Below are positions 873-32,566 of a stretch of 32,823 nucleotides of DNA, piece after piece. Each line of letters opens with the position of its first letter. Position 1 is the stretch's first letter. The notes under the pieces were generated by a model. It had not been told where the DNA came from. It made no database searches and saw only the letters and a list, made by a program, of their open reading frames with translations. Origin of the DNA: Myxococcales bacterium (GTDB lineage Bacteria > Myxococcota_A > Polyangia > Nannocystales > Nannocystaceae); contig JACKDW010000001.1 in the NCBI GenBank assembly GCA_020633295.1, positions 1,405,828 to 1,438,650 on the forward strand. Reading direction: 5' to 3'. The translations under genes and the position numbers were made by a program.

Positions 873-898
873 GCCGCGACGTCAACCTCGGGAGCACC

Positions 899-1822: not shown

Positions 1823-1824
1823 CC

Positions 1825-5153: not shown

Positions 5154-5327
5154 CCGACGCGACTGGTTTGCGTGATCGATTCGCCGCGCTGAGGCGTCCG
5201 TCACAGCGCCGCTTTACAGAACCAGTAGGATGCACCCACACTTCCCCCGGTATCGCGCGCCCGCGCCCGCTACATCCCCCTACCTATCGACTGGACTGCG
5301 TCCCGCTTCCCGATTTGGAGCCGCGAG

Positions 5328-6299
5328 ATGGTGAACGCCACAGAACCCCGCCTCTTCTGCGTCCCCGCGCCGACCGCTGACGAGCGCGACGAGGACTACA
5401 CGCCCCCGGACGGCGCCCCGCCCGGGCCGTGGTCGCTCGCCAGCGCCTATCGCTACTGCGAGCGCCTGGCCACGACCCACTACGAGAACTTCCCCGTCGC
5501 CTCGCGGTTCATGCCGGCCCACCTGCGCGGGAACGTCATGGCCATCTACGCGTTCGCGCGCACGGCCGACGACTTCGCCGACGAGCCGCGCTACGCCGAC
5601 CGCCGCGTCGAGGCGCTGAACCGGTGGGAGACCCTGCTCGAGGCCTGCTACCACCGCGACGTCGAGCACCCGGTGTTCCTCGCGCTGCGCGACACGGTGC
5701 GTCGCCACAACATCCCCATCGGCCCGCTCAAGGATCTCCTGACCGCGTTCCGCATGGACCTCACCAAGCACCGCTACAACACCTTCCAGGAGATCCGGCA
5801 CTACTGCCGCCACTCGGCCCACCCGGTCGGGCGCCTCGTGCTCTACGTCCACGGTCACCGCGCCCCCGATCTCCACCGCTTCAGCGACGAGATCTGCGCG
5901 GCCCTGCAGATCGCCAACTTCCTGCAGGACGTCTCCGTCGACCTGCCCCGCGGCCGCTGCTACCTGCCCGAGGAGGACCTCGTGCACTTCGGCGTCACGC
6001 GCGAGGACCTGCTCGCGCGTCGCCACACCCGCAACTTCCTCGACCTCATGGCCTTCTCGGTCGTGCGCGCGCGCGCCATGTTCCTGCGCGGTCGCCCGCT
6101 GATCCGCCAGGTCTCGCCCGGCCTGTCCATGGAGCTCGACACCATCTGGGGCGGCGGCATGGCGATCCTGCAGCGCATCGAGGACATGGGCTACAAGGTC
6201 CTCGACAGCCGGCCGACCCTCGAGAAGCGCGACATGGCCGGCATCGCGGTGCGCTCGCTGTTCCGCTTCGGGCGCCGCTTCATCCGCGGCGAGGTCTGA
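5328..6299 (+). CDS. hpnC: Squalene/phytoene synthase family enzyme, HpnC-like (hydroxysqualene synthase)
   Basis: YCERLATTHYENFPVASRFMPAHLRGNVMAIYAFARTADDFADE is an HpnC-type N-terminus. GGAG lies 8 nt upstream of the ATG, and the gene is first of an hpnC-hpnD-hpnE order. Confidence 0.7.
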   Translation: MVNATEPRLFCVPAPTADERDEDYTPPDGAPPGPWSLASAYRYCERLATTHYENFPVASRFMPAHLRGNVMAIYAFARTADDFADEPRYADRRVEALNRWETLLEACYHRDVEHPVFLALRDTVRRHNIPIGPLKDLLTAFRMDLTKHRYNTFQEIRHYCRHSAHPVGRLVLYVHGHRAPDLHRFSDEICAALQIANFLQDVSVDLPRGRCYLPEEDLVHFGVTREDLLARRHTRNFLDLMAFSVVRARAMFLRGRPLIRQVSPGLSMELDTIWGGGMAILQRIEDMGYKVLDSRPTLEKRDMAGIAVRSLFRFGRRFIRGEV

Positions 6300-6409
6300 G
6301 ACCAGGACCAGAACTGGACCAGGATCGGGACGAGCACGAAGGCGAAGGAGCGCGGAGGCTTGAGTACGGACGTGCGACGAGGGACGGAGGAGCGCGGGGG
6401 CGAACGCGC

Positions 6410-7357
<948 letters not shown>

Positions 7358-7432
7358 CGCGGCGCCCCAGCGACACGGGCCGTCGAGGCTGCAGAGGCCA
7401 CAAGAGCTGCAAGGAAGCAGGAGCGAGCAACA

Positions 7433-8764
7433 GTGCGACGCGTCGTGATCATCGGAGGCGGACTCGCCGGGCTGGCCTGCGCCGTGCGCCTGGCGGGCGC
7501 GGGCCAGCGCGTCACGGTGGTCGAGGCCACCAAGCGCGGCGGCGGGCGCTCGCGCTCGTTCCCCGACTCCTCCTTCGGCCGCGAGCTCGACAACGGGCAG
7601 CACCTGATGATGGGCTGCTACCGCGAGACGCTCGCGCTCCTGCGCACGCTGGGCACGCAGGACGGCGTGCGCTTCCAGCAGAACCTCGCCATCGAGATGG
7701 CGCGACCGGGCGGGCGGCGGATCCGGCTGCGCTGCCCCGCCCTGCCCGCGCCCATGCACCTCGTCAGCGGGCTGCTGACCATGCGCGGGCTCGGGGTCGT
7801 GCACCGGGCCTCGGCGCTGCGCGCCGGCCTCGTGCTCAGCGGCGAGGTCCGGCGCCCCGACGACAACGAGACCTGCGACGCCTGGCTCACGCGCATGGGC
7901 CAGACGACCGCGATCCGCAACGCGTTCTGGGAGCCGCTGATCTGGGCGGTGCTCAACGACGACCCGCTGATCTGCTCGGCCGCGATGTTCATGGCGGTGC
8001 TCGAGCGCGCGTTCATGGGCACGCGCGACGACTCGCGCCTCGGCGTGCCCTGCGTGCCCCTGAGCCAGCTCTACGTCGATCAGGCCGCCGACTACGTGCG
8101 CGCCCGGGGCGGCGCGCTGCGCTTCGGCGCGCCCGCGCGGTCCGTCGCGCGCGCGGGCGCGACGCAGCGCGTGCTGCTGAAGTCCGGCGAGGCGCTCGAC
8201 GCCGACGTGATCGTCGCCGCGGTCCCGCCGCGCGCGCTGCTCGAGCTGCTCGACGACGTCGCCGACTCACCTGTCTTTCAAGACATCAAAAAACTCAAGA
8301 CCGCGCCGATCGTCAACCTGTGGTGCGAGCTCGACCGCTCGCCGCTCGGCGGCGCCGAGATGATCGGCCTCGTCGGCAGCCCGCTGCACTGGCTGTTCGA
8401 CCGCAACGTCATCGAGCGCGCGCCCCCCCGCGCGCCGGTGCTGCTCAACTGCACGATCTCGGGCGCGCGCGGCTGCGTCGATGACTCGCCCGCGGCGCTG
8501 CGCCAGCTGCTGCAGGACGAGCTCGCGCGCTACTTCCCGGGCCCGCCGGTGACGATCCAGCGCTGCCGCGTGATCAAGGAGAAGCGCGCGACCATCTCGC
8601 ACGCCGCCGGGACCTACCAGTGGCGCCCCGAGACGCGCAGCCCGATCAAGGGGCTGTACCTCGCGGGCGACTGGGTGCGCACCGGGCTGCCCGCGACGAT
8701 CGAGTCTGCGGTCCAGAGCGGCCACCAGGCGGCGGCCGCGATCCTCGAGGACGCGACGCGCTGA
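7433..8764 (+). CDS. hpnE: Squalene-associated FAD-dependent desaturase / hydroxysqualene dehydroxylase (amine-oxidase-like)
   Basis: GTG start gives an N-terminus (V)RRVVIIGGGLAGLACAVRLAGAGQRVTVVEA, a Rossmann dinucleotide-binding motif. The C-terminus GLYLAGDWVRTGLPATIESAVQSG is the FAD-binding tail of the phytoene-desaturase/HpnE family. It follows hpnC and hpnD directly. Confidence 0.7.
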   Translation: MRRVVIIGGGLAGLACAVRLAGAGQRVTVVEATKRGGGRSRSFPDSSFGRELDNGQHLMMGCYRETLALLRTLGTQDGVRFQQNLAIEMARPGGRRIRLRCPALPAPMHLVSGLLTMRGLGVVHRASALRAGLVLSGEVRRPDDNETCDAWLTRMGQTTAIRNAFWEPLIWAVLNDDPLICSAAMFMAVLERAFMGTRDDSRLGVPCVPLSQLYVDQAADYVRARGGALRFGAPARSVARAGATQRVLLKSGEALDADVIVAAVPPRALLELLDDVADSPVFQDIKKLKTAPIVNLWCELDRSPLGGAEMIGLVGSPLHWLFDRNVIERAPPRAPVLLNCTISGARGCVDDSPAALRQLLQDELARYFPGPPVTIQRCRVIKEKRATISHAAGTYQWRPETRSPIKGLYLAGDWVRTGLPATIESAVQSGHQAAAAILEDATR

Positions 8765-8807
8765 CGGCTCACGCGAGCCGCCGCGCGCCGCTCGGGCGAC
8801 GCGGCGC
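8765..8807. terminator. Two adjacent GC-rich hairpins between the convergent hpnE and secreted-protein genes (possible bidirectional terminator)
   Basis: CGGCTC-acgc-GAGCCG (8765-8780) and GCGCCGC-tcgggcgac-GCGGCGC (8785-8807). The second overlaps the stop of the minus-strand gene. No U-tract follows. Confidence 0.35.
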
Positions 8808-10591
8808 TACTCGACGATACGCTGGCCCGGCTGCATCTGGATCTCGTCGGTCGTGCCGTCGTGGGTCGGCAGGTGCAGCGTGCCGAGGTTGACCGCGAAG
8901 GCGTTGAGCCAGTACGGGCCGATCGTGATGCGCTCGTTGAGCGGCCACGCGCTGATGTCGATGGTCCCCTTCACGCCCGGCGTGACCGTGACCTCCCAGT
9001 CGAAGCGCGGGTTGTTCAGCCGCCAGCCGTAGGGGTACGTGCCCTTGTCGGCCTCGTACGGGATGGTCGTCGTGAACTCGCGGGTCGTGTCCTTGCTCCA
9101 CGACAGCTCGTGCTTCACCTGCGTCGTCTTGCCCTTGGTGCTCTTGATCGGCTCGCCGTCGAGCACCGATCGGTAGTCGATCTTCGGCTTGCCGGTGCCG
9201 CCGAGCTTGAAGCCGATCTGCGCGCTGCCGGAGACGAGCCCGAGCAGGCTCAGCTGCGTCCGCGTGACGCTCGCGGGGATCCACCAGTCGATCCCGCAGT
9301 TGCTGCCGCAGCTCTCGAAGGGCGGGGTGAACTGCTTGCCGTGATCGAACTGCAGGTTGTTCGGGATCTTCTCGTCGAGCAGCTTGCCCCCGAGCACCCA
9401 GAGCTTGACGCGGACGTAGGCGCCCGCGGTCAGCACCAGCTCCTTGCCGTCGAACACCTCGCTCTGCTTGAGGCCGACGCTCGAGTAGTAGCTCGCGTCC
9501 GCGTTGAGGACGTGCGGGTCGACGACCGTGCTGTACTCGGTCGCGCCGTAGGTCCGGCCCTTGGTCTTGAGCGTGGTCGGCGAGGTGTCGACCTTGAACT
9601 CCACGGGCACGCGCAGGCCGAAGCCGTACCAGGCGTGCGCGCCGATCTCGAACTCGCCGATGCCGAAGTCCCACTCCTCCTCCCACTCGAAGGAATTGTC
9701 GATGGTGAAGCCCGTCAGGAACTTCGCCACGTAGCTGGCCGCGCCGGTCCCCTGCACCGCGGGCAGGAAGCGCGAGATCGTGGGCGGCAGCGCCGGGTTG
9801 AGCACCGCGGTCGCCAGCTTCGAGTAGTTGAGCACGCCGTCGACGACGGTCGGCACGCGCAGCGACGTCGCCGACGCGCGCGCGAGCGTGCTCGTCGGCA
9901 CCGAGACGCGCGTCGTGATCGTGACGTCCCCGAGGCCCTCGCCGATCGCGTCGAGCAGCGCCTGGTCGCCGCCTTGGTTCATGGCCGCGACGAGCGGGTG
10001 CGACGACGGCTTGCCCGCGAGCTCGGCCTTGTAGGCGTTGAGCGCCGCGCGCTGCGTCTTGGTCAGCTGCTTGACGAGCATGCGCGCGCCCGGGCGCACG
10101 CTCCGGGGCAGCGGGGCCACGCGCGACAGCCCGCCGCGCAGCGCGTCCGCGTCGGTGACGGTGAAGGTCGTCGACGACACGAGCACCGTCGCCTGCGGCG
10201 TCTGGATGACCTGCTCGTCCATCGACGGCGCGCCGAGCAGCGCGCCCTTCGGCAGCGCGGCGAGCTGCGTGTTGAGCTGGTGATGGTTCGCGAGCACCTC
10301 GTCGGCCAGCGCCTCGACCTTGACGTCGCCGCGCCCCGCGACCTTGACCGTGTCGCGCTTGCGCAGCGACAGCGCGCCCTGCTTGACCACCCCGTCCTGC
10401 GCGACGCGGCGCTGCACGAGCGTCGGGCTCGCGTCGACGCTCGCCGCCGACGCGACCTGCGGCGCGAGCTGGAGCGTCAGCAGCGTGACGCCGGCGAAGA
10501 CCAGAACACCGCCGCGACGGGCGCGGCGACGACGAGAACTCGAGATTCCACCCACGGTCGCAGGGTACTCGCATCCCCTCGCGGCGCGCAC
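8807..10591 (-). CDS. Large secreted hypothetical protein (594 aa) with a twin-arginine-like signal peptide; family not recognised
   Basis: GTG start. The N-terminus SSSRRRRARRGGVLVFAGVTLLTLQLAPQVASAAS has an RR n-region, a hydrophobic core and an AxA site. The mature part is compositionally ordinary, beta-rich and Ser/Thr/Gly/Trp/Tyr-rich. The overlapping ORF 8769..10574 is an Arg-rich shadow frame. Confidence 0.6.
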   Translation of the reverse strand: MRAARGCEYPATVGGISSSRRRRARRGGVLVFAGVTLLTLQLAPQVASAASVDASPTLVQRRVAQDGVVKQGALSLRKRDTVKVAGRGDVKVEALADEVLANHHQLNTQLAALPKGALLGAPSMDEQVIQTPQATVLVSSTTFTVTDADALRGGLSRVAPLPRSVRPGARMLVKQLTKTQRAALNAYKAELAGKPSSHPLVAAMNQGGDQALLDAIGEGLGDVTITTRVSVPTSTLARASATSLRVPTVVDGVLNYSKLATAVLNPALPPTISRFLPAVQGTGAASYVAKFLTGFTIDNSFEWEEEWDFGIGEFEIGAHAWYGFGLRVPVEFKVDTSPTTLKTKGRTYGATEYSTVVDPHVLNADASYYSSVGLKQSEVFDGKELVLTAGAYVRVKLWVLGGKLLDEKIPNNLQFDHGKQFTPPFESCGSNCGIDWWIPASVTRTQLSLLGLVSGSAQIGFKLGGTGKPKIDYRSVLDGEPIKSTKGKTTQVKHELSWSKDTTREFTTTIPYEADKGTYPYGWRLNNPRFDWEVTVTPGVKGTIDISAWPLNERITIGPYWLNAFAVNLGTLHLPTHDGTTDEIQMQPGQRIVE

Positions 10592-10618
10592 CCGGCTCGC
10601 CCGCCGGCGCGTCGCTTT

Positions 10619-10639
10619 TACATGACTATAGAGACATAT
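10619..10639. promoter_or_regulatory. Copy 1 of the palindromic AT-rich motif TACATGACTATAGAGACATAT, 28-48 bp upstream of the secreted-protein gene start
   Basis: It is an AT island in about 72% GC DNA with ATGa-N8-ACAT inverted-repeat architecture. A TTGACC -35-like hexamer lies immediately upstream on the coding (minus) strand. It matches the copy at 13491-13511 at 17 of 19 positions. Confidence 0.45.
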
Positions 10640-10722
10640 TAAAGATCACGCGCGGTCAAGGCGGACCGCCGCGACGACGAGCAGCCCGCGGGCCCGCGCG
10701 CGACGAGCAGCGCCGCGGCGCG

Positions 10723-11769
10723 CTACCGCAGCGCCGGGAGCACCGCGACGAGCGCGACGCCGACGACGACCGCGAGGCCGATCAGCGCGACCGCGATGAA
10801 GACCGCGATCGTGCGCGGCGCGGGCCCCTCCGCCGGCGCGCGCCGGTCGCTCGCCTCGACGCCCACGGGCGTCGTCGCCGACGACGACCGCGTGAGCGCG
10901 GCCGCGGTCGCGGGCGCGAGCGAGTTCATCCCCAGCGCCTCGACGAGCACGCCGCCGACCTCCGGGTCGCGCTGGATCGCGGCCGCGGCCGCGAGCGCGG
11001 CGTCCGGATCGCCGAGGCGCTCGTGCGCGTGGATCCGGTACATCGCGAACATCAGGCGGTACTGGTGGGCCTCGGGCACGTCGCCGACGCGGGCCCCGAC
11101 GAGCTCGCGCACGCGCGCCGCGTCGCCCTCGCGGACCAGCACCGACGCGAGCCCGACGCGATAGGCGCTGTCGAGCACCACGTCCTCGGGCGCGGGGTCA
11201 CAGCGCTCGATCCAGGCGCGCGCCGCCGCGAGCGCCCCCAGGCTCGCGGCCGCGCCGGCGAGGTTGACGAACAGGAGGTGGCGAAAGCCCGGGTCGCGCA
11301 GCTCCTCGATCGCGCGCTCGAGCACCGCGCGGCGCTCGAGGTGCTTCCCGCCCATCCCGTAGCCCTGGTTCAGCATCGTCGCGCACCACCACAGCAGGCG
11401 CTGATGCTCGACGCGCGGCGCGGCGCGGACGAGCGCCGCGGCCTCGCGAAAGCGCCGCGCCAGCTGCTCCTGGACGTCCGCGAGCCCCGAGCGCGTGAGC
11501 GACTCGCAGCCGGGCGGCGGGCGCACCGTCGAGTATGGGTTGTCGGGGAGCGGGCGCCCGGCCTGCAGGCGCAGCGCGGCGAGCCGCGCCTCGCCCTCGA
11601 GCGTGTGAGCGAGCCGCGCGGGCTCGAGGCGTCGCCGCCCGATCAACATCTGCACGCCGCAGTACTCGCAGGTCACGCTGCCGCCGGTCTCCTCCACCCG
11701 CGCCGGCGCGCCGCAGCGCTCGCAGCTGAGCACGCGGAGCTCGACGTCAAACGTCCGCTGCATCGTCAC
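10723..11769 (-). CDS. Hypothetical protein with an N-terminal zinc ribbon (CxxC...CxxC), helical repeat region and a C-terminal transmembrane anchor
   Basis: N-terminus LSCERCGAPARVEETGGSVTCEYCGV. The C-terminus TIAVFIAVALIGLAVVVGVALVAVLPALR is a hydrophobic tail anchor. Start is GTG 11769 or ATG 11763. Confidence 0.55.
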   Translation of the reverse strand: MTMQRTFDVELRVLSCERCGAPARVEETGGSVTCEYCGVQMLIGRRRLEPARLAHTLEGEARLAALRLQAGRPLPDNPYSTVRPPPGCESLTRSGLADVQEQLARRFREAAALVRAAPRVEHQRLLWWCATMLNQGYGMGGKHLERRAVLERAIEELRDPGFRHLLFVNLAGAAASLGALAAARAWIERCDPAPEDVVLDSAYRVGLASVLVREGDAARVRELVGARVGDVPEAHQYRLMFAMYRIHAHERLGDPDAALAAAAAIQRDPEVGGVLVEALGMNSLAPATAAALTRSSSATTPVGVEASDRRAPAEGPAPRTIAVFIAVALIGLAVVVGVALVAVLPALR

Positions 11770-11889
11770 CCGCGCACGAGCGTACCAGCGAAGCGCGCGG
11801 GCCCGGGGCCCCGCGGCGAGCGATCGGCCCGGAGGTGCACACGAGCGCGCGCGCCCCCGCGCGCCCGCGCGCCCGTCGAGGCGCGGCGC

Positions 11890-13335
11890 TCAGCCGACCG
11901 GCGGGAAGGTCACGAGCTTGAGCCCGGCGCCCGTCATGTCGGAGTAGGTGTAGGGCTGGTTGAGGCCCGTCACGGTCAGCTGGACCGCGTAGTTCTGCGG
12001 GCTGATCTTGAACGCCTGGTTCGCGCCCTGGTCTACGAGCCAGATGAAGCCGTCGACGTCGACGCTGACCCCGACCGGCGACACGCAGCCCGGGATCGCC
12101 ACGAGCGGCGCGACCGTCGACTTGCTCTTGACGTCGATGACCGCGAGCCCGCAGCCGCCGAGCAGCCCGGCGCCGACGTCGACGGCGTAGTAGGCCCGGT
12201 CCGCGTCCGAGACCATCACGCCGCGCATCGACTGGTTACCCGTGTTAATGAAGCTCCACTGCCCGCTCGCGGCGTCGAAGCTCGCCGCGACGCCGGCGCT
12301 CGCGATCCACGGGTTGCCGTACTGGTCGAGCGCCATGCCGTAGGTCCACATCTGCCCCGAGGGCGGCTGCGGGACCTCGACGCGCTCGACGTCGAGCGTG
12401 TCCCCGTCGATGCGGATGAGCGGCCCCTGCTGCCAACCGATGACCCAGAAGTCGAGGTTCTTGTCGACCGCGCCGCCGTACGGGCCGTAGCTGAGCTGGG
12501 CCAGCGCGGATGACCAGCCCGGCACCGCGACCTCGTCCTCGGCCTCGCCCGTGACGCTGCTCAGCCGGCGAAAGCGCCCCGTGTTGGCCGCGTAGTCGTA
12601 CCAGCCGATCCACACGCGCGGGTTCGCGTTGGCGCAGCCGTCGAGGCCGACCGCGCCCTCCCACGCGACCGGCCGCGGCCCGTGCTGATAATGGTCCGAG
12701 GGGATCGGGTGGTTCCACACCACGCACTCGTCCTGGAACCACGGGTACACGTCCCCGGCGCCGCTCGAGGTCTCGATCACGCCGTTGTTGTTGCGATCGA
12801 CGCAGTCGTCCGGGCGCGCCGCGATCTTCGTGATGCTGCCCGCCGACGGGCTGCCGACGATCCCGCCGCCGCGGTTGACGACGACCGCGTCGCCGTAGAG
12901 GCCGACGGAGGTCCGCGACGGCTCGGAGACCGCCTCGGGCCCCGTCCTGTAGCGCGCGAGCTCGACGCCCGACTTCGTGTCGATCTTCGACACGGTGCCC
13001 TCCGGCGAGTTCGCGATCCAGATGTTCGAAAAGTCAGGCGTGTTGCCGGTCGGCCCCCCGCCCCAGCAGTCGCCGCCGCCGCCGGGCAGCGCGTCGGTCT
13101 CGAAGCCGTCGCCCATGTCGAACTTCATGTCGGCGCCGCCCGAGTTGGTCAGGTCGATGCCCGAGCCGCTCGTCGAGGCCGTGACCCCGGGGCTCGAGAC
13201 GGCGCCGCTGTCGATGTCAGAGTCCGAGTCGCCTGACCCGCCCCCGCCGCAGCCCGCGCCCACGCAGGTGAAGAGCGTGCCCGAGAGGAGCACCGCGCAC
13301 CAAGGGACGACCACCACGAGACCACGACGACGCAT
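11890..13335 (-). CDS. Secreted lipoprotein, probable beta-propeller (Vgb/SMP-30-like repeat character), Gly/Asp-rich N-terminal linker
   Basis: ATG start. The signal MRRRGLVVVVPWCAVLLSGTLFTC is followed by a Cys and Gly/Ser/Asp linker. Repeated blades have the character NIWIANSPEGTVSKID, GFIWLVDQGANQAFKI and GNPWIASAG. Confidence 0.6.
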   Translation of the reverse strand: MRRRGLVVVVPWCAVLLSGTLFTCVGAGCGGGGSGDSDSDIDSGAVSSPGVTASTSGSGIDLTNSGGADMKFDMGDGFETDALPGGGGDCWGGGPTGNTPDFSNIWIANSPEGTVSKIDTKSGVELARYRTGPEAVSEPSRTSVGLYGDAVVVNRGGGIVGSPSAGSITKIAARPDDCVDRNNNGVIETSSGAGDVYPWFQDECVVWNHPIPSDHYQHGPRPVAWEGAVGLDGCANANPRVWIGWYDYAANTGRFRRLSSVTGEAEDEVAVPGWSSALAQLSYGPYGGAVDKNLDFWVIGWQQGPLIRIDGDTLDVERVEVPQPPSGQMWTYGMALDQYGNPWIASAGVAASFDAASGQWSFINTGNQSMRGVMVSDADRAYYAVDVGAGLLGGCGLAVIDVKSKSTVAPLVAIPGCVSPVGVSVDVDGFIWLVDQGANQAFKISPQNYAVQLTVTGLNQPYTYSDMTGAGLKLVTFPPVG

Positions 13336-25357: not shown

Positions 25358-27046
25358 TCACAGCTTCAGGAGCTCCGGCGGGATCTCGAGCCCGCCCATG
25401 CGGGAGAGCTCGCGGAGCGCCGGCGCGACCTTGCGGGACGCCTTGAAGCTCGTCGCCCCGTCCTTCGCGTCGCGCTCGGCCGCGAACATCACGCGGTGAT
25501 CGATCGAGCCGTCCTTCTCCACGCGCGGCGCCGTGATCTCGCGGATCTGCATCGACTCGCCGTTGACGCCGGTGTTGAGCTGCACGACGACATCGACCGC
25601 CTGGGCCAGCGCTGTCGTCAACGGCATCAGCCCGCCGCCCGCCGATGTCCCGAACGCGGCCAGGCGCGAGAGCGCGTGCGCGCCGCTGACACCCCACAGC
25701 GAGACGACCGCGCCGCGGCTGGCACCGGCGAAGGCGTCGAGCACATCCGGCGCGTCGACGGGGCTCACTTGGTGGGAGACGAGCAGGTCGAGGCCGCCGC
25801 GGAGGAGCAAGCCGAGCACGCTGGTCAGCGAGAGGGTGTCGGCGGGATCAGGCATACGCCGGATGTGAACCCACCCGCGGTGCTGCACGCCCAGCAGCCC
25901 GCCGTCGGAGACGAGCGCCACTCGCATGTTCGTCGGGATCTCGCCGACGAGCGCCTCCATGAAGCGGTCGAGGTTGACGCCGCCCGACGCCGACACGATC
26001 ACGCGACGGCTGTTGCGCAGCATCAACAACAGGAACTCGCGCATGTCGTCGCTGAGCACGCCCTCGGACACGAGCGCCGCCAAGCTCTTCGCGTCGGTCT
26101 TGATCCGCCGCAGGCACAGCACCGGCACGCGGCCCTGGTGGGGAGGGAGCAGCGCGTGCATGTGGAAGCCGTGGTCGACCACGCCCTCGATGATCTGCGC
26201 GCCCTCGAACCACAGCCCGCGCTTGCGCGCCAGTCGGCGGATCGCCAGCCCCAGCGCGCGCGGGACCGTGAAGCGGAGGTTCTCGAGCCGGCTCCCCAGC
26301 TCGCCGTCGCGGACGACGTGGATCGGGCCGGCGCCGGTGACGTTGATCTCGCGGATCGCGTCGTCACGCATCAGCGAGCTCAGCGGTCCGTACTCGAGCA
26401 GCTCGGCCGCGAGGCGCTGCTCGAGCTCATCGATGTCGACGCCGTCCTCGAGCGTGGCCTTGACCGCGTTGATCGCCTGGTCGAGCTTGGCGAGCGCCTT
26501 GCTGCGATCCTCGTCCGGGACGTCGGAGCGCTTGGGCTGCTTGATCGGGTCGAGCCGCGGCGCGGCCTGCAGGACGTCGCGGATGATGCGGTCGGCGATC
26601 TTGTCGAGGTAGGTGCTCTCGACCCCCGCCGCCGCGACGCGCTTGGCCGAGGTCACGAGGCTCGTCTCGTCCGCCGAGAGGTCCGCGAAGCGCGGGCGCT
26701 CCTTCGAGACGCGGGCGGTCAAGCTCTCGATCGACTCCGCGGGGTCGATGACCGCGTCGTCCCCCTCGAGCATGAGGATGTAGTCGCCGACGTAGATCCG
26801 ATCGGCGCGTCGCACCACCCGCGCCCCCTCGACCCGGCGACCGTTGATATAGGTGCCGTTGGTGCTCTCGAGGTCGATGCACTCGACGGTGCCCTCGTGC
26901 CTGCGAAACCGCAGGTGGTGCTTGGAGACGTTGACCCGGTCGAGCACGAGGTCATTGTCCTCCTCGCGCCCAATCGCGAATTGGTCGCCCCCAAAGTCAA
27001 AGCGCTGCGTTTGACCACCCTTCTCGTGGACGACAACGTAGAGCAC
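25358..27046 (-). CDS. N-terminal FHA domain fused to a CpaF/TadA (type IV pilus / Tad secretion ATPase)-like core with degenerate catalytic motifs (predicted pseudo-ATPase)
   Basis: FHA core RFDFGGDQFAIGREEDNDLVLD...HLRF...NGTYING. The downstream region is colinear with CpaF (EINVTGAGPIHVV; HALLPPHQGRVPVLCLRRI). Walker A GGTGSGKT is replaced by SASGGVNLD, IEDTAEL by VSDGGLL, Walker B/Glu IIVGEVRG by LLVSHQVS, and His-box TGHDG by GASRG. GTG start 27046. Confidence 0.7.
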   Translation of the reverse strand: MLYVVVHEKGGQTQRFDFGGDQFAIGREEDNDLVLDRVNVSKHHLRFRRHEGTVECIDLESTNGTYINGRRVEGARVVRRADRIYVGDYILMLEGDDAVIDPAESIESLTARVSKERPRFADLSADETSLVTSAKRVAAAGVESTYLDKIADRIIRDVLQAAPRLDPIKQPKRSDVPDEDRSKALAKLDQAINAVKATLEDGVDIDELEQRLAAELLEYGPLSSLMRDDAIREINVTGAGPIHVVRDGELGSRLENLRFTVPRALGLAIRRLARKRGLWFEGAQIIEGVVDHGFHMHALLPPHQGRVPVLCLRRIKTDAKSLAALVSEGVLSDDMREFLLLMLRNSRRVIVSASGGVNLDRFMEALVGEIPTNMRVALVSDGGLLGVQHRGWVHIRRMPDPADTLSLTSVLGLLLRGGLDLLVSHQVSPVDAPDVLDAFAGASRGAVVSLWGVSGAHALSRLAAFGTSAGGGLMPLTTALAQAVDVVVQLNTGVNGESMQIREITAPRVEKDGSIDHRVMFAAERDAKDGATSFKASRKVAPALRELSRMGGLEIPPELLKL

Positions 27047-27121
27047 ACCATGGCTTACCGCGAACGCCTCCTCCCCAGCAAGCGCCGATCCTACGCGCGC
27101 GCGCGGATGCGACCGGCGCGG

Positions 27122-27160
27122 TTAAAAAAACAGCGCGACGCGAGCGGGACGCGTGAAGAC
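27122..27160 (-). terminator. Possible weak intrinsic terminator (short GC stem followed by a T7 run on the minus strand) downstream of the CcmH-like gene
   Basis: The minus strand reads ...ACGCGtcccgctCGCGTCGCGCTGTTTTTTTAA. It holds the only run of seven T residues in the window, but the stem is imperfect. Confidence 0.25.
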
Positions 27161-27183
27161 GCAACGGTCACGGGAGCAGCCCG

Positions 27184-27651
27184 CTAGGAGAAGCCGTCGA
27201 CGCGATCAAGCGCGTCATCGAGCGCGTCCATCTCGCGCGCGTTCGCGGGTCCCCCTGAGGGCGTGGTCGCGCTCGCGCCACCGCGCGCGGCCTGCCCCTG
27301 GCGGATCCAGCGTCGCGAGATCATCACCAGCGCCGCGATCGCGAGGAGCGCCAACACGAGCGTGCCGTAGATCAGATCGGGACGTCCGAGGTAGCCCTGG
27401 ATGTCGGGGAAGCGCGAGACGAGCTCGGTCTCGATCTCGTCGCGCGTCTTGCCGCTCTCCGCCATCGAGAGGATCTCGCGCTCGAGCGTTCGCGCGGCTG
27501 GCGACGGGCACGTGGCGATGGTCCGCCCCGGACAGTAGGGCGACATCAGATCCTGGGCGAGCTGATTGGCGATCTGCTCGGCCTGGGGCTGACTCGGCGA
27601 GTTGACCTGGGTTGCGGTCGCGGAGCTCATCAGCAACGTACGCACCAGCAT
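27184..27651 (-). CDS. Small single-pass membrane protein, weakly CcmH/CycL-like (cytochrome c biogenesis) but with atypical Cys spacing and no clear signal peptide
   Basis: LMSPYCPGRTIATCPSPAARTLEREILSMAESGKTRDEIETELVSRFPDIQGYLGRPDL resembles the CcmH periplasmic domain. One transmembrane helix LIYGTLVLALLAIAALVMI. The N-terminus is not hydrophobic. Confidence 0.35.
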   Translation of the reverse strand: MLVRTLLMSSATATQVNSPSQPQAEQIANQLAQDLMSPYCPGRTIATCPSPAARTLEREILSMAESGKTRDEIETELVSRFPDIQGYLGRPDLIYGTLVLALLAIAALVMISRRWIRQGQAARGGASATTPSGGPANAREMDALDDALDRVDGFS

Positions 27652-27728
27652 AGCCGATCACGCGGACGCGGGGCACGCGATCCGCGTGGGGGGGCGACAA
27701 CGCGTCCCCGCCACGCGCGCGCGGGCTG

Positions 27729-28511
27729 CTAGATATCGAGGCGCTTGGCCTTGCGCTTGCCGCCGGAGCCCTTCTTCTTGCGCTGCTCCTGCTTCTTGGT
27801 CTCCAGCGCCTCGGTGCAGAACTTGTCGTGCTTCTCTTTCTGCTTGGGATCGCTCAGGTCGAGGCGCTCCCACTCCTTGTCGGTCAGCTGGCGCACGTAC
27901 TTGGCGACCTTCTGCTCGACCACCTGCCACTGCACTTCGACCTTCTCGAGCTCGACCTTGTCGCCGTCGTTGTAGGCCTTCGGGTAGTTGTTCATCACGT
28001 GCTCGTGGGCCTCGAGGATCGAGCTGATGAACTTGGACTGCTCGAGGATCCGCGGCTCCTTCGAGAACAGGCGCTTCTGCCACTGGTCGATCTTCGGCAC
28101 GTAGAGCTGCTTGAACTGGAACCACTGCTCCTCTTCGGGGGTCCCGGGCTCAACGCCGAAGGCCTTGGCGCCCTCCACCTTGACGGCCTCGCGGAAGCAC
28201 TCCAGCTCCTCCCAGTAATTGAGCATCTTGCTCAAGTTCTTCTTGTCGTACTTGTAGAGGTGCTTCTCGCCCTCGGGGTCCTTGCGGTCCCAGGCCTTGA
28301 GCTCGGCGTCGGTGGGCGGCGGGAGCCCGTTGGGACGCGGCTTCGGTTTGGGCGTGTAGGTCTTTTCGAACTCGGTCTTTGGATCGCTGGCGAGCGCGTC
28401 CTTGATCGACTGGCGCTCACCCTTTCCGCTGCACGCGGAGACCAACATCAGCGACAGTGTGAACGCACCCAATGTAGCCGTGCCAACAATCCGCATCGCG
28501 CCTGATCTCAT
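27729..28511 (-). CDS. Lys/Glu-rich lipoprotein, hypothetical
   Basis: ATG 28511 with GGAG 5 nt upstream. Signal MRSGAMRIVGTATLGAFTLSLMLVSAC with lipobox VSAC. The mature protein is highly charged (K/E/W-rich) with a KRKAKR tail. Confidence 0.6.
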   Translation of the reverse strand: MRSGAMRIVGTATLGAFTLSLMLVSACSGKGERQSIKDALASDPKTEFEKTYTPKPKPRPNGLPPPTDAELKAWDRKDPEGEKHLYKYDKKNLSKMLNYWEELECFREAVKVEGAKAFGVEPGTPEEEQWFQFKQLYVPKIDQWQKRLFSKEPRILEQSKFISSILEAHEHVMNNYPKAYNDGDKVELEKVEVQWQVVEQKVAKYVRQLTDKEWERLDLSDPKQKEKHDKFCTEALETKKQEQRKKKGSGGKRKAKRLDI

Positions 28512-28633
28512 TGGTTCTCCCTGCCCTGTCGTGAGGTTCAACGATCCGAAGCTGACCTCTGGTGCCAACTGTAACGAGCGATCACCCGGGCTGTAAAGCA
28601 GTTTCGGGGGGACCGGCCCCCAAGGCCTCTACC

Positions 28634-28681
28634 GTGAAGAAGGGACACGAAGCAGGGACACGAAGCAGGGACGAAGAACGG
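28634..28681. repeat. Tandem 13-bp direct repeats GGGACACGAAGCA x2 plus a degenerate third copy within a 375-bp divergent intergenic region
   Basis: Seen directly as GAAGAAGGGACACGAAGCAGGGACACGAAGCAGGGACGAAGAACGG. A GGGGGGACCGGCCCCC hairpin lies at 28603-28620. Confidence 0.6.
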
Positions 28682-28886
28682 CGAAAAAACCTGCTTGTCG
28701 GGCACTCTCGAACCTGTAGACTGCCCCCAACTGGCGCGGGTCCACTCCGCCTCGAGGCAACCCACTCGAGCGTCGACCCTGCGCCGCGCCACGAACACGG
28801 TCGCTGCCCCCCTCGTTCAACGCAGCACCAGTGCACCATCGGGCGCTCCAACACGACGAGAGTCAACACAGGAGAAGTCGTCTGCC

Positions 28887-29720
28887 ATGACAGTCGCCAG
28901 GAAGGCCAAGAAGTCCGCCAAGAAGGCCAACAAGAAGGTCGCCACCTCGAAGAAGGCGGCCAAGAAGACCGCGAAGAAGAAGGCCGCCAAGAAGGCCAAC
29001 AAGAAGGCCGCCAAGAAGTCGACCACGGCGCCCAAGAAGTCGACCAAGAAGAAGGCCGCCAAGAAGGCCAACAAGAAGGCCGCCAAGAAGGCCAACAAGA
29101 AGGCCGCCAAGAAAGCGACGAAGAAGGCAGCGACGAAGAAGGTCGGCAAGAAGGCGGGCAAGAAGAAAGCCGCCAAGAAGGCCGCTGCGCGCAAGTCGAC
29201 GAAGACGACCGCCGCCAACAAGAAGCCGCGCCGGCGCAGCGCGAACGCGCGCAAGCCCGTCGAGCTGACCGTCGGCGATCCCGCCCCGGCCTTCGAGCTC
29301 GACGCGGACAACGGCAAGACCTACTCGCTCACGCGTCTGCACGGCAAGCGCGTGGTCCTGTACTTCTACCCCCGCGACAACACGCCCGGCTGCACCACCG
29401 AGGCGTGTGACTTCCGCGACCTCCACGACGACTTCAAGTCCGCCAACACGATCGTCCTCGGGGTCAGCTCGGACTCGGTCGACTCGCACAAGAAGTTCCG
29501 CGCCAAGCTCGACCTGCCGTTCCCGCTGCTCTCGGACCCGAGCAACAAGATCGCCACGGCCTACGGCGCGTACGGCAAGAAGAAGGGCGGCACGGATCTC
29601 GGCTCAATCCGCAGCACCTTCATCATCAGCCCCGAGGGGCGCATCGAGACCATGTACACGGCCGTGCGCGTCAAGGGGCACGCGAAGACCGTGCTGCAGC
29701 AGGCCCAGGAAGCCGCCTAG
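28887..29720 (+). CDS. bcp: Peroxiredoxin Bcp (thiol peroxidase, PRX_BCP subfamily) with an about 110-aa N-terminal histone-H1/AlgP-like Lys-Ala repeat extension
   Basis: AGGAGAAG Shine-Dalgarno 9 nt upstream. The N-terminus is (AKKAAKK/ANKK)n. The C-terminal domain GDPAPAFELDADNGKTYSLTRLHGKRVVLYFYPRDNTPGCTTEACDFRD...VLGVSSDSVDSHKKF...LPFPLLSD...STFIISPEGRI has the T-P-G-C-T peroxidatic Cys motif. Confidence 0.8.
   Translation: MTVARKAKKSAKKANKKVATSKKAAKKTAKKKAAKKANKKAAKKSTTAPKKSTKKKAAKKANKKAAKKANKKAAKKATKKAATKKVGKKAGKKKAAKKAAARKSTKTTAANKKPRRRSANARKPVELTVGDPAPAFELDADNGKTYSLTRLHGKRVVLYFYPRDNTPGCTTEACDFRDLHDDFKSANTIVLGVSSDSVDSHKKFRAKLDLPFPLLSDPSNKIATAYGAYGKKKGGTDLGSIRSTFIISPEGRIETMYTAVRVKGHAKTVLQQAQEAA
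28896..29215 (+). repeat. Coding low-complexity repeat (GCCAAGAAGGCCAACAAGAAGGCCGCCAAGAAG-type 9-33 bp units) encoding the KKAA tail
   Basis: Seen directly as repeated gccaagaag / gccaacaagaag units. Confidence 0.7.
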
Positions 29721-29805: not shown

Positions 29806-30162
29806 TCACGGCCAGCCGACCCACGCGCGCAGGAGCGAGCCGACGACCACGCTGAGCGAGTTGGCCAGCAGCGACCACAGCAGCGCGCGTCGCAGGCCGA
29901 GCGCGCGCATGAGCAGCGCCTCGGTGACGAGCGCGAAGCCCTCGGCGACCGCGAAGAACAGCTCGTAGCGCGAAAGCGGCACGATCGCGGGGATGACCCA
30001 CCAGACCACGGGGTGCGTGATCGCGCTGGCCAGGAAGCCGTATCCAGTACAGACGACGAGCGAGCGCTCGCGCGCGCGCGCGAGCGCGTACGCGTAGACC
30101 GGCGTCTCGACGAGCTGCGTCAACGCGAAGGCCGACAGCCACATCCAGAACCACTCGCTCAT
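29806..30162 (-). CDS. Small polytopic membrane protein (about 119 aa), hypothetical; translationally coupled to the upstream Blh-like gene
   Basis: ATG 30162 overlaps the upstream TGA (ATGA). The protein MSEWFWMWLSAFALTQLVETPVYAYAL... is hydrophobic with 3-4 predicted helices. No lycopene-cyclase-domain PxEE motif was found. Confidence 0.5.
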   Translation of the reverse strand: MSEWFWMWLSAFALTQLVETPVYAYALARARERSLVVCTGYGFLASAITHPVVWWVIPAIVPLSRYELFFAVAEGFALVTEALLMRALGLRRALLWSLLANSLSVVVGSLLRAWVGWP

Positions 30163-31175
30163 CGCCGCGCCTCCATCCACAGCGCGGCCGCGGCCGCGAG
30201 CTCCAGGTGCCCGTGGAAGCGCGCCATCCGGAAGTAGCCGTGATTGGCGGCCATCAGGTCGAGCACGGCCCAGACCGCGAGGCCGCAGCAGAGGATCGTC
30301 GTGACGATGACGACCGCGCCGCCGACGTCGCGCCAGAGCCCGCGCACGCTGCCGGCGAAGGTCGGCGGGGTGACGCGGGCGCGATCGTCATCGGGCAGCA
30401 GCACGAGCCAGACGACGTAGTGGATCGTCTGGGCGAACGCGTAGAGCAGCACGAGGCGCGTGGCCAGGCTGCCGGAGAGCCCCGGGGACAGACGCGCGAC
30501 CTGGTAGACATGATCGAGGGGACCGAGCGCGCGCGAGAGGCCGCCGGCCGCGAGCGCGAGCGCGAGGTCGCTGAGCAGCAGCGCGCTGACGCCGACGTAG
30601 AGCGCGAGCGGGAGCCAGTGCAGGCGCGTGGTACGAGGGCGCCACGCCCACCACAGGAGCACGGCGACGAGGTTGTGCGCGTGGGCGAACACGATGTCGC
30701 GCGCGCCGCCGCAGGCCGCGAGCGCGGCCGCGAGCGCGCCGACGGTGACCAGGCCGAGCAGCTTGCGCCCTGCCCCGGCGCGCGACACGAGCACCGCGCC
30801 GGCGGCCCCGAGGAAGCCGAAGAGCACGTCGGCGCCGAGCGCCGTGGCGAGGATCGGGACCCCGGCGGCGAGCCACAGCGCGGCGCGTCGATGGAAACCT
30901 GGCTGAATCACCAGGTATCGAAGATCGCCGAGCAGGTGCGGGATCCCCCAGACGATCGGGCCGAGCGCGAGGATCCACAGCGGGATGAGCAGCGTCGCGG
31001 TCGCGGCCGAGGCGATCGCGCAGGTCGCCAGCAGCGCGACCCGCAGCTCGCGGCGGACCATCAGCGGGCGCGCGAGCGGCCCGAGCAGGCGCAGCCATCG
31101 CCGTCGCAGCCAGTCGACGGGCGCGACCGCGGAGACGGCAATCCGCAGCGGCTCGCTCCGCGTCAACGACGTCAC
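30159..31175 (-). CDS. Polytopic membrane protein, possibly Brp/Blh-family (beta-carotene 15,15'-dioxygenase-like)
   Basis: GIPHLLGD resembles the N-terminal GLPHGALD motif of Brp/Blh, and several His residues lie in the helices (AHAHN, TIHYV, ANHGYFRMARFHGH). Start is uncertain: GTG 31175 with a GGGGG Shine-Dalgarno, or ATG 31061. The + strand ORF 30207..31331 is a shadow frame. Confidence 0.4.
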   Translation of the reverse strand: MTSLTRSEPLRIAVSAVAPVDWLRRRWLRLLGPLARPLMVRRELRVALLATCAIASAATATLLIPLWILALGPIVWGIPHLLGDLRYLVIQPGFHRRAALWLAAGVPILATALGADVLFGFLGAAGAVLVSRAGAGRKLLGLVTVGALAAALAACGGARDIVFAHAHNLVAVLLWWAWRPRTTRLHWLPLALYVGVSALLLSDLALALAAGGLSRALGPLDHVYQVARLSPGLSGSLATRLVLLYAFAQTIHYVVWLVLLPDDDRARVTPPTFAGSVRGLWRDVGGAVVIVTTILCCGLAVWAVLDLMAANHGYFRMARFHGHLELAAAAALWMEARR

Positions 31176-31327: not shown

Positions 31328-32566
31328 CTAGCGGACCGCGAAGGCGAGCAGATCGCCGCGGTTGGTGACCGCGTAGAAGCGCTGCGTCACCGGGTCGTAG
31401 CTGGGCACGCTCGAGACGCCGCTGCCCGTGTCGAGCCGCGCGAGGAACTCGCCCGTGCGCGCGTCGAGCGTGAGCAGGCCGGTGTCCGAGTGGGTCACGA
31501 ACACGAGGTCGTCGACGATCACGGGCGTCGACAGCACGCCCGGATCGACCTGCTGTCGCCAGCGCTCGCGACCGCCGCGCTCGATCCCGAAGATGCCCTC
31601 GAGGGAGGAGGTGAACACGAGCACCCCGCCCGGCCCGGCGATCACGCTGCCGGCGCCCTTGACGGGCTTGTGCCAGCGCTGGCTGCCGTCGTCGATCGAG
31701 AGGCCGTACACGCCGGTGCTCGCGCCGGAGACGACGAGCTCGCCGGCGTTGGCGTCGACGAGCGGGGTGCCGTCGGCGTCGACGAAGTCGCCGCGCTCGG
31801 GCGGCGCGACGCTCGTGGTCCACAGCGGCACCCCCGAGTTCGCGCCGAGCGCGACGACGCGCCCGTCGTCGAAGCCCGAGAACACCACGCCGTCGCTCGA
31901 GACGCCGTCGCCGAGCTCGAGCAGCGAGAGGCCGGAGCGCCCGTGGACCGTGAAGTTGGTCTGGAACAGGCTCTCGTCGGCGGGGTACTGCCAGCGCCAA
32001 TCACCGGTGGCGAGATCGAGCGCGTAGATCTGGTCGCGCGAATTGGCGAAGTAGACGATCTCGCCGTGGATCAGCGGCTGATTGCGGATCGTCCCCGGGG
32101 TCTCGTAGGACCACCGCGGCGCGCGGGTCTCGAGGTCGAGCGCGACGAGGGCGCCGTTGTCGGTGCCGAACACGAGCACGTTGTCGTCCTCGGCGAACAC
32201 CGGGATGCTCGAGATCGATCCGCTGATCGGGATCTCCCACGCGACGGAGCCGTCGTTGCCGTCGAGGGCGAACAGCGTGCCCTCACGGCTGCCGACGTAG
32301 AGCACGCCGCGCTTGTGGTCGGTGGTCACGCCCGCGAATTCGTCGGGCCGCAGCACGAAGTTGTCCGGCAGCGTCAACCGCTGCATGAACATCAGATCCA
32401 TCACCTGCCGCGGCGCCGCGTCGTCCTCGGGGTACAGCTCGACGGTGGTCGGGCGCGTCTGGCAGCCGGCGAGCGCGCCGAGCAGCGCGAGCCCGAGGGC
32501 GGCCACGAGCTGCGGCCGCGCGCGCGCGCTGCTTCGACGTCTCGGGTTGGCCGCCTTCGCGCTCAC
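31328..32566 (-). CDS. bamB: Lipoprotein with PQQ-like beta-propeller repeats, BamB-like outer-membrane protein assembly factor
   Basis: Signal with lipobox LLGALAGC. Repeated blades of the type G.lyVGS.dG.lfALD...G...W. The start GTG overlaps the stop of an upstream TPR (YfgM-like) gene, as in the conserved yfgM-bamB arrangement. Confidence 0.55.
   Translation of the reverse strand: MSAKAANPRRRSSARARPQLVAALGLALLGALAGCQTRPTTVELYPEDDAAPRQVMDLMFMQRLTLPDNFVLRPDEFAGVTTDHKRGVLYVGSREGTLFALDGNDGSVAWEIPISGSISSIPVFAEDDNVLVFGTDNGALVALDLETRAPRWSYETPGTIRNQPLIHGEIVYFANSRDQIYALDLATGDWRWQYPADESLFQTNFTVHGRSGLSLLELGDGVSSDGVVFSGFDDGRVVALGANSGVPLWTTSVAPPERGDFVDADGTPLVDANAGELVVSGASTGVYGLSIDDGSQRWHKPVKGAGSVIAGPGGVLVFTSSLEGIFGIERGGRERWRQQVDPGVLSTPVIVDDLVFVTHSDTGLLTLDARTGEFLARLDTGSGVSSVPSYDPVTQRFYAVTNRGDLLAFAVR

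Follow-up and report, generated by a model that had tools for sequence, protein, structure and literature searches.

A probable pseudo-ATPase with an FHA domain and a CpaF fold, conserved across Nannocystales in an uncharacterized signaling module

As a rule, PilT/VirB11-family ATPases are regarded as obligate motors that drive pili, secretion systems, and archaella. A gene on the minus strand of a 32,823-nucleotide stretch of Myxococcales bacterium DNA (contig JACKDW010000001.1; the whole stretch is called the window below) raises the question of why such a fold would be kept once its catalytic motifs have been lost. The 562-aa product, here called FHA-pseudoCpaF, joins an N-terminal FHA domain to a CpaF-like body; its family keeps the fold and one inter-subunit contact pair, and new invariant residues stand where each nucleotide ligand used to be. 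On the basis of the evidence set out below, we put a probability of about 0.6 on this protein being a selected pseudo-ATPase that descends from FHA-fused pilus-motor ATPases and most likely acts as a phosphothreonine (pThr)-gated scaffold or adaptor. The gene and the segments of its product map to the window as follows.

25358..27046, minus strand: FHA-pseudoCpaF gene, GTG start, 562 aa (open reading frame [ORF] and third-codon-position GC content [GC3], Pfam FHA match, CpaF homology and fold, 120-member alignment)
26747..27046, minus strand: FHA domain, residues 1-100 (Pfam PF00498, E 6.5e-16; invariant columns; dN/dS, the ratio of nonsynonymous to synonymous substitution rates, of 0.08 against locus L013)
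26612..26746, minus strand: disordered linker, residues 101-145 (AlphaFold2 pLDDT below 50 for residues 103-143)
26396..26611, minus strand: three-helix-bundle region, approximately residues 146-217 (model helices 142-161, 178-198, and 205-217; as in class II/III CpaF)
26087..26395, minus strand: N-terminal (PAS-like) domain (NTD) of the ATPase fold, approximately residues 218-320 (profile-anchored residue map)
25517..26086, minus strand: RecA-like C-terminal domain (CTD), approximately residues 321-510 (all nucleotide and Mg ligands replaced)
25958..25993, minus strand: pseudo-Walker A segment S352-A-S-G-G-V-N-L-D-R-F-M363 (L359 for the P-loop Lys, D360 for the Thr)

The ORF has a GC3 of 0.93 and a codon-position signature like that of the surrounding genes, which identifies it as a real gene, and 238 full-length homologs with the same N-terminus were found at E<=1e-5. 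As the original prediction had claimed, the protein opens with an intact FHA domain: Pfam PF00498 matched residues 25-87 (E 6.5e-16, 59 bits against a cut-off of 20.7), and the pThr-binding residues G26, R27, S41, H44, N63, and G64 were invariant in an alignment of 41 sequences. The accompanying claims, that the remainder is colinear with Tad/CpaF ATPases and that the fold was retained despite the loss of motifs, were also borne out. When all PDB sequences were searched with phmmer, the top match was Caulobacter CpaF (8rkd, E 1.7e-12, residues 200-505). An AlphaFold2 model built from 41 homologs had a mean pLDDT of 82.5, was confident apart from the linker (residues 103-143), and contained the two-domain secretion-ATPase fold with its PAS-like NTD and RecA-like CTD; its best Foldseek match was again CpaF (8rjf, E 8.8e-26, approximately 430 aligned columns), followed by FlaI, archaeal GspE, VirB11, and PilT. 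Class III CpaF proteins consist of an FHA domain, an intrinsically disordered region, a three-helix bundle, an NTD, and a CAD (PMC12019362), and the modeled domain order of FHA-pseudoCpaF matches this architecture. The family-level profiles fared differently: the Pfam scan gave no match of the protein to PF00437 (T2SSE) at E<=1, none of the 120 homologs listed carries PF00437, and the best NCBIfam match, the TadA-family model TIGR03819, scored 83.6 bits, below its cut-off of 373.

The functional positions were mapped by aligning 120 family members to a profile of canonical CpaF-like proteins, using the published CpaF numbering (PMC12019362). In CpaF, K287 and T288 are the Walker A residues, E357 is the Walker B residue, the Asp-box residue E312 coordinates Mg, R217 and R223 are Arg fingers on the NTD, and the inter-chain finger R347 is stabilized by D215 of the neighboring NTD (PMC12019362). 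At Walker A, the GGTGSGKT of CpaF is replaced by ASGGVNLD: G286 corresponds to N358 (Asn in 120/120 members), the P-loop Lys K287 to L359 (Leu in 120/120), and the Mg-binding T288 to D360 (Asp in 119/120). The Asp box changes from EDAAE to SDGGL, with S380 for E308 (Ser in 120/120), L384 for E312 (Arg in 104 of the 120 family members), and D381 for D309, the sole acid among E308, D309, and E312 to be retained. The catalytic Glu, E357, has become Q426 here and either Arg (61) or Gln (59) across the family; H374 of the His box is S443 here and Ser or Thr across the family; and the second His, H382, is W451, with Trp in all 120 members. Two of the three Arg fingers are lost, R217 being V289 in this protein (61 Lys, 45 Ile, and 12 Thr in the family) and R223 being H295 (73 Tyr, 23 Ser, and 10 Phe). 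The third finger, R347, and its stabilizing acid, D215, are kept in all 120 members as R416 and E287, respectively.

These assignments follow a single ungapped register common to the phmmer and hidden Markov model (HMM)-anchored alignments and to the secondary structure of the model. A different register, shifted by 2-5 residues, was given by mafft --add, which aligned R361 with the Walker A Lys and D431 with the catalytic Glu; it was rejected because the flanking β-strands align ungapped at one offset, because the modeled secondary structure fits the phmmer alignment, and because no [AG]xxxxGK[ST] motif occurs anywhere in the query or in the other members of the 120-protein family (0/120 by regular-expression search). 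Even the shifted register has no G-K-[ST] and puts a Phe at the position of the Mg-binding Thr. The mafft --add result is the one argument for an active ATPase with mis-registered motifs, an explanation that we consider highly improbable in view of the concordant register from the other three sources, the P-loop count of 0/120, and scores under both the Pfam and the NCBIfam thresholds. An invariant LRR at residues 312-314 was also considered for the NTD Arg fingers and dropped, as the CpaF fingers are R217 and R223 (PMC12019362), both lost here. The original prediction had read the degenerate motifs as SASGGVNLD, VSDGGLL, LLVSHQVS, and GASRG, and these strings proved correctly placed in the phmmer and profile-anchored alignments; the motif-level profile alignment of the 120 members confirmed the loss of the Walker A Lys, the Walker B Glu, and the His box, and the mis-registration that it had named as its own possible flaw did not materialize, the loss being independent of register. 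Judged from sequence, all catalytic motifs are degenerate whichever register is used, and the protein is predicted to be no longer able to bind or hydrolyze ATP in the canonical way.

The replacement residues rank with the best-conserved positions of the protein. Across 119 homologs with identities of 50-66%, the segment ASGGVNLDRF is >90% conserved, and many invariant columns lie around the former pocket in the 41-sequence alignment. Against the 90%-identical L013, the only pair from which dN/dS was taken, the ratio was 0.15 overall, 0.12 for the ex-ATPase domain, and 0.08 for the FHA domain; values of 0.5-0.6 against 56-60%-identical relatives were discarded as inflated, the synonymous sites being saturated and constrained at this GC3. 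Because the replacement residues are invariant and dN/dS is 0.15, we favor a selected pseudo-ATPase over a decaying one. A relic, that is, a former ATPase gene drifting toward a pseudogene with no function of its own, would account for the loss of every catalytic motif, but it is opposed by the intact ORF in 62 species-level genomes, by the low dN/dS with invariant replacement and FHA-binding residues, and by a conserved gene order in which the adjacency of a CcmH-like gene (described below) has outlasted an inversion. The relic explanation is thereby effectively refuted.

Two further features of the sequence bear on what the protein may do. The linker carries a family-specific motif, [LVF]-T132-S-A-x-R-V-x-x-A-G-[VI]-E-S-[ST]-Y-[LV]-D, whose TSA.R core is present in 117 of the 120 family members and in the distant member P0126; the 120 proteins of the sister search (see below) gave one match, P0153, in a different sequence context. 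We regard this motif as a candidate phospho-acceptor or docking site. In the sequence, nothing but the joint retention of E287 and R416 hints that the protein may still pack as a ring.

A scan of species-representative genomes placed the family in 62 species-level genomes. Named carriers are Nannocystis punicea, N. exedens, N. pusilla, Enhygromyxa salina, Plesiocystis pacifica, and Paraliomyxa miuraensis, together with many metagenome-assembled genomes (MAGs); the lineage-labeled MAGs are Nannocystaceae/Nannocystales or more broadly myxobacterial, with the one exception of L051, labeled Polyangiaceae. The closest locus, at 90% identity, is from a "Polyangia bacterium" MAG. An exhaustive search with the ATPase-like part alone returned approximately 10 cluster representatives at E<=1e-30 and then dropped sharply to generic CpaF-like proteins. 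Walker A is missing in 49 of the 149 best out-group representatives, and 8 of the 10 Walker A-less out-group proteins that were scanned combine FHA with T2SSE. Polyangiaceae relatives (L075-L080) and P0132 (L007) are P-loop-less and do not have alongside them the gene module described below, which is therefore not a universal companion of degenerate FHA-CpaF proteins. The P-loop-less Polyangiaceae relatives differ in sequence from the Nannocystales family, and by these comparisons the latter is one order-wide branch of a large radiation of FHA-CpaF-like proteins, degenerate in part or in full, within the class Polyangia.

In a rough neighbor-joining tree (405 columns, 100 bootstraps; long-branch effects are possible), the family was monophyletic (98%) on a long branch and nested within a 78%-supported clade of all degenerate FHA-CpaF-like proteins, and this degenerate clade was sister to the canonical FHA-CpaF proteins. 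The sister clade of the family was sampled as the best 120 matches of a search seeded with P0148. Approximately 29 of these were canonical FHA-CpaF proteins with all eleven functional sites intact, and approximately 91 formed a "His-less" clade with named members from Kofleriaceae and Haliangium. The His-less proteins keep D215, R217, R223, K287, T/S288, E308, E312, and R347, are without both His-box histidines, and have Asp in place of E357 in 55/91 cases; they likely bind ATP, with impaired hydrolysis. The Nannocystales family keeps just the D215/R347 pair among the same eleven sites. Taken together, the sequences suggest a graded series from a motor, through a likely ATP binder with impaired hydrolysis, to a nucleotide-free protein, and suggest that the function of the module never required motor activity. 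This natural series of three steps offers a way to ask which tasks a CpaF-fold ring can perform when it does not hydrolyze ATP, and by what route a motor turns into a scaffold.

The window protein is the positional ortholog of the His-less sister clade (Kofleriaceae/Haliangium; P0148, P0295, and P0324), because both lie in the same gene cluster with homologous components. The shared cluster comprises the SUKH-TPR, lipoprotein, phospholipase C (PLC)-like, (Zn-ribbon-)FHA, and PP2C genes, and the FHA domains of the sister proteins are 44-46% identical to those of the family. The sister proteins differ in keeping the nucleotide-binding residues, in having a longer linker without the TSA motif and no CcmH-like partner, and in having a kinase in the cluster. 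The members of the cluster in the window are listed below.

18669..19523, minus strand: PP2C Ser/Thr phosphatase, Stp1/IreP family (NF033484, 233.4 bits against a cut-off of 230; Pfam PP2C)
19558..20982, minus strand: Zn-ribbon protein with two FHA domains (Pfam DZR and two FHA stretches; NCBIfam FhaB/FipA-like)
21051..22262, plus strand: X403, lipoprotein with a CarboxypepD_reg-like domain (Pfam; conserved lipobox)
22154..24061, plus strand: X635, exported protein with a Zn-phospholipase-C/P1-nuclease-fold domain, β-sandwich domains, and an acidic tail
24076..25278, minus strand: cytoplasmic protein with a SUKH (SMI1/KNR4)-like N-terminus and C-terminal TPRs (Pfam TPR), immediately downstream of the pseudo-ATPase gene
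27184..27651, minus strand: CcmH-like single-pass membrane protein (Pfam CcmH, E 2.6e-12, 46.7 bits against 25), upstream of the pseudo-ATPase gene
27729..28568, minus strand: lipoprotein of unknown function with the motif WDRKDPEGEKHLYK (conserved in alignment; lipobox), upstream of the CcmH-like gene

The PP2C, double-FHA, and TPR neighbors named in the original prediction are thus all present (18669-19523, 19558-20982, and 24076-25278, respectively), and the neighborhood is not incidental, the cluster being conserved across Nannocystales and, at approximately 30% identity, in Kofleriaceae/Haliangium-type genomes. Across the 62 genome loci, the CcmH-like gene was found in 60, the lipoprotein gene in 58, and the TPR gene in 50; the counts for the genes farther away (X635, 39; X403, 39; Zn-ribbon-FHA, 38; PP2C, 29) are limited by flank length, many flanks being shorter than 8 kb. 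The same arrangement surrounds FHA-CpaF-like genes of approximately 28% identity on the unrelated contigs L010, L011, and L012, where a TPR gene is followed by two genes of unknown function, then by (Zn-ribbon-)FHA and PP2C genes, a gene for a small FHA protein, and a Ser/Thr kinase gene. The TPR, X403, X635, and Zn-ribbon-FHA proteins are homologous between the family and sister loci at 30-35% identity, with TPR orthologs at approximately 30%, X403 orthologs in L010 and L012 at 33-35%, and a Zn-ribbon-FHA ortholog in L010 at 31%. The Ser/Thr kinase is present in all three of these sister-clade loci, and in Pseudenhygromyxa a kinase gene (L001, 12272-13591) is inserted directly after the pseudo-ATPase gene itself. 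The SMI1_KNR4 model of Pfam matched two of seven TPR-protein orthologs (best E 8.6e-6); the SUKH fold is common among immunity and adaptor proteins. Some orthologs of the TPR protein end in a basic Arg/Lys-rich tail.

A search of all GC3-supported ORFs with Pfam found no secretin, prepilin peptidase, or TadB/C gene in the window, tiny Flp pilin ORFs not being specifically excluded, and no Tad/Kil genes were seen among the Pfam-annotated neighbors in L001, L002, L004, and L005. The earlier statement that no pilin, secretin, or TadB/C genes are visible in the window therefore stands, with the same proviso on tiny Flp pilin ORFs. PADLOC gave no meaningful defense-system match, and a defense-system reading was dropped on that account; the window contained no Rfam match and no tRNA. 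The sole σ70-like site in a scan of 23900-28800 lies at 28597-28568, by the start of the lipoprotein gene. A run of seven T residues follows a GC-rich stretch at 27100-27140 on the minus strand, between the CcmH-like gene and the pseudo-ATPase gene, and is unusual in DNA of 72% GC; it could be a weak terminator or attenuator, although the consensus scan did not call it.

The CcmH-like protein is a partner specific to the Nannocystales family. Its gene is adjacent in 60/62 loci and also stands upstream of the 36%-identical P0126; in Enhygromyxa it is inverted, with adjacency kept (L033, 7388-7828, minus strand). Alignment to the CcmH structures 2kw0 and 2hl7 showed that the RCPxC redox motif of CcmH is replaced by SPYC with an invariant Ser (SPYCPGR...CPS), and no hydrophobic N-terminal signal was found in six CcmH-like orthologs. 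A single transmembrane helix in the protein precedes a basic stretch, and the C-terminus is a conserved acidic tail with the pattern ELDALDDALDxVDxF. Although it passes the Pfam threshold, it has neither the periplasmic CxxC redox motif nor the signal peptide of CcmH. Its sequence suggests another enzyme fold put to new use, possibly a second pseudoenzyme in the unit, and the protein is a plausible membrane anchor. An AhpC/TSA-type neighbor was considered as a CcmG-like partner of CcmH and rejected, because it is a PrxQ/BCP-type peroxiredoxin; it is encoded at 28695-29720 on the plus strand and has an N-terminal extension of approximately 190 aa. The corresponding upstream region of Enhygromyxa (L033, 5348-6400) holds a long, highly repetitive low-complexity coding stretch.

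The domain content and the conserved context point to a scaffold that would be regulated by Ser/Thr phosphorylation; its phosphorylation-dependent docking, partners, ring formation, and biological output are what we infer from them. The intact FHA domain would dock on a pThr that a Ser/Thr kinase adds and the PP2C phosphatase of the cluster removes, and the CpaF-fold body, possibly still a ring, would serve as a nucleotide-independent platform. Docked on this platform would be two neighbors, the SUKH-TPR protein and, by its cytoplasmic tail, the CcmH-like membrane protein, so that the signaling module would be coupled to the exported lipoprotein and the Zn-phospholipase-C-like protein. Several points weigh against this proposal. 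The window contains no kinase gene, and a kinase is nearby in just 3/62 family loci. The genus Nannocystis proper is without the adjacent TPR-to-PP2C part, even where the flank is full length, and part of the synteny within the order is owed to common descent. The topology of the CcmH-like protein is ambiguous, there being no signal peptide yet positive charges after the transmembrane helix. Canonical motifs predict activity and do not prove it, and some proteins labeled as pseudoenzymes have turned out to be active or to bind ligands. Invariant basic residues lie by the old pocket (R361 and R416, with Arg at position 384 in 104/120) and could support a non-canonical ligand.

This last point bears on a rival to the scaffold, a sensor in which the remodeled pocket would bind a nucleotide, a second messenger, or a phosphorylated ligand and act as an allosteric switch. 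The pocket would be formed by ASGGVNLDRF, S380-D381, the Arg found at 384 in most members, R416, D420, D431, and W451. The former active-site positions are among the most conserved of the family, which fits retained binding better than a purely structural role, and the sister orthologs keep all nucleotide-binding residues without the His box and often without the catalytic Glu, which suggests that the ancestor was a binder or switch and not a motor. Against this, neither the P-loop Lys nor the Mg-binding Thr and Glu survive, two Arg fingers are missing, no Pfam or NCBIfam model for a ligand-binding variant fits the 562-aa protein, and a pocket filled by the protein itself or a protein-protein interface could explain the conservation just as well; we consider such a sensor unlikely. 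A different use of the same fold would be as a decoy or poison subunit that, recruited under FHA control, co-assembles or competes with an active CpaF/KilF paralog elsewhere, occupying ring positions or the platform-binding site, and thereby regulates a Tad/Kil-type machine. Descent from FHA-CpaF proteins in the rough tree, the retained inter-chain contact pair E287/R416, and the existence of active KilF-type FHA-CpaF proteins in Myxococcota are in keeping with this idea. Mixed rings are improbable, however, at a core identity of approximately 22% to canonical FHA-CpaF. Neither the window nor the four Pfam-annotated loci showed a TadB/C, secretin, prepilin peptidase, or pilin gene, and the conserved neighbors make up a module that is distinct and consistent in itself. 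The decoy of the original prediction, taken as one for a Tad machine, accordingly has no gene-context support, no Tad/Kil genes lying nearby, and we judge a decoy quite unlikely.

A more far-reaching possibility, which we hold to be tentative and rather unlikely, is that the cluster is an unrecognized envelope-associated machine of Polyangia, derived from a Kil/Tad-type FHA-CpaF motor and built around a pThr-gated CpaF-fold ring as its hub. The ring of the Nannocystales would then be nucleotide-free and tethered to the membrane by the pseudo-CcmH, and the hub would govern when the exported Zn-phospholipase-C-like enzyme and its lipoprotein partner are deployed or active, serving predation or the remodeling of envelope lipids. 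If this were true, the three stages (active motor, ATP-binding His-less protein, and fully dead protein) would record a stepwise conversion of a motor to a scaffold.

The pThr-gated scaffold that we favor can be set beside several known systems. To CpaF/TadA of Caulobacter crescentus (8rjf, 8rkd, and 9e24) it is alike in domain order, in being matched best by sequence and by fold, and in retaining the D215/R347 contact pair as E287/R416; it differs in that the catalytic motifs are replaced, the PF00437 and TIGR03819 thresholds are failed, and there are no Tad genes nearby. KilF of Myxococcus xanthus is the central hexameric ATPase, of CpaF type and "fused to an N-terminal FHA domain," of the Tad-like prey-killing Kil system, whose gene cluster is rich in FHA proteins and lipoproteins and holds a prepilin peptidase and a secretin (PMC8460266). 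The claim that FHA-CpaF fusions exist in myxobacterial Kil systems is thus upheld by that paper, which makes no mention of Nannocystineae (PMC8460266). FHA-pseudoCpaF resembles KilF as a myxobacterial CpaF-type protein with an N-terminal FHA domain, canonical FHA-CpaF proteins being sister to the degenerate clade in the rough tree, and differs in having lost the catalytic motifs and in a neighborhood that showed no gene for a secretin, peptidase, platform, or pilin.

Pathways in which an FHA scaffold works with a Ser/Thr kinase and a PP2C phosphatase include Fha1/TagH-PpkA-PppA of type VI secretion (T6SS) and the actinobacterial FhaA/FhaB-PstP-PknA/B. The present cluster shares with them FHA readers and a PP2C eraser, with a kinase in related loci, a gene content that suggests a like signaling logic. 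In those pathways simple FHA scaffolds recruit active machines, whereas in FHA-pseudoCpaF the FHA domain is joined to a motor fold predicted to be dead, and the cluster contains neither T6SS genes nor genes for cell-wall synthesis. EssC/EccC of type VII secretion combine FHA domains with ATPase-fold domains, some of them degenerate and regulatory. The likeness to EssC/EccC is one of analogy only, since these belong to the FtsK/SpoIIIE superfamily, have at least one active domain, and are membrane-embedded, unlike FHA-pseudoCpaF. A search of the open literature found nothing on CpaF-type proteins without catalytic motifs, on KilF paralogs, or on this module. The KilF fusion and the class III layout were known; the sequence data make a strong case that what is new is a selected, order-wide pseudoenzyme derivative of class III CpaF within an uncharacterized signaling module. 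The module, with its Ser/Thr kinase, PP2C, FHA readers, SUKH-TPR protein, lipoprotein, and Zn-PLC-like exported protein, occurs in a predatory lineage rich in natural products. Public records label the homologs as TadA, CpaF, "FHA domain-containing protein," or even "oxoglutarate dehydrogenase inhibitor"; the labels "Flp pilus assembly complex ATPase component TadA" and "pilus assembly protein CpaF" are misleading and could prompt the inference of a Tad pilus where there may be none.

Other parts of the window and of the compared genomes gave minor observations. Four GC3-supported ORFs (594, 348, 481, and 338 aa) at 8807-13335 and 30159-31175, all on the minus strand, had no Pfam or NCBIfam match; one of them adjoins bamB (31328-32566). 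Positions 1-8764 (plus strand) hold a mevalonate-pathway block with an FMN-dependent dehydrogenase-like gene, GHMP kinases, and a diphosphomevalonate decarboxylase. Within it, an 820-aa ORF at 2691-5153 (plus strand) is an apparent fusion of GHMP-kinase domains to a complete HMG-CoA reductase domain; the ORF shares approximately 180 nt with the decarboxylase ORF upstream of it, so that its start or the fusion itself is uncertain. Two tandem squalene/phytoene synthase genes (5328-6299 and approximately 6302-7357, plus strand) are followed by an amine-oxidase-type flavoprotein gene (7433-8764), and the synthase pair and flavoprotein resemble an HpnCDE-type squalene route. Among the CpaF-like proteins collected, P0131 (1156 aa), P0133 (1605 aa), P0129, P0140, and P0144 contain two or three complete tandem CpaF-like modules, each with an intact Walker A, and from their sequences they look like covalently linked motor "pseudo-oligomers." In L007 (6706-17593), the P-loop-less FHA-T2SSE protein P0132 is encoded between a BamA-like Omp85 gene and a TamB gene; degenerate FHA-CpaF paralogs therefore occur in more than one envelope-related context.

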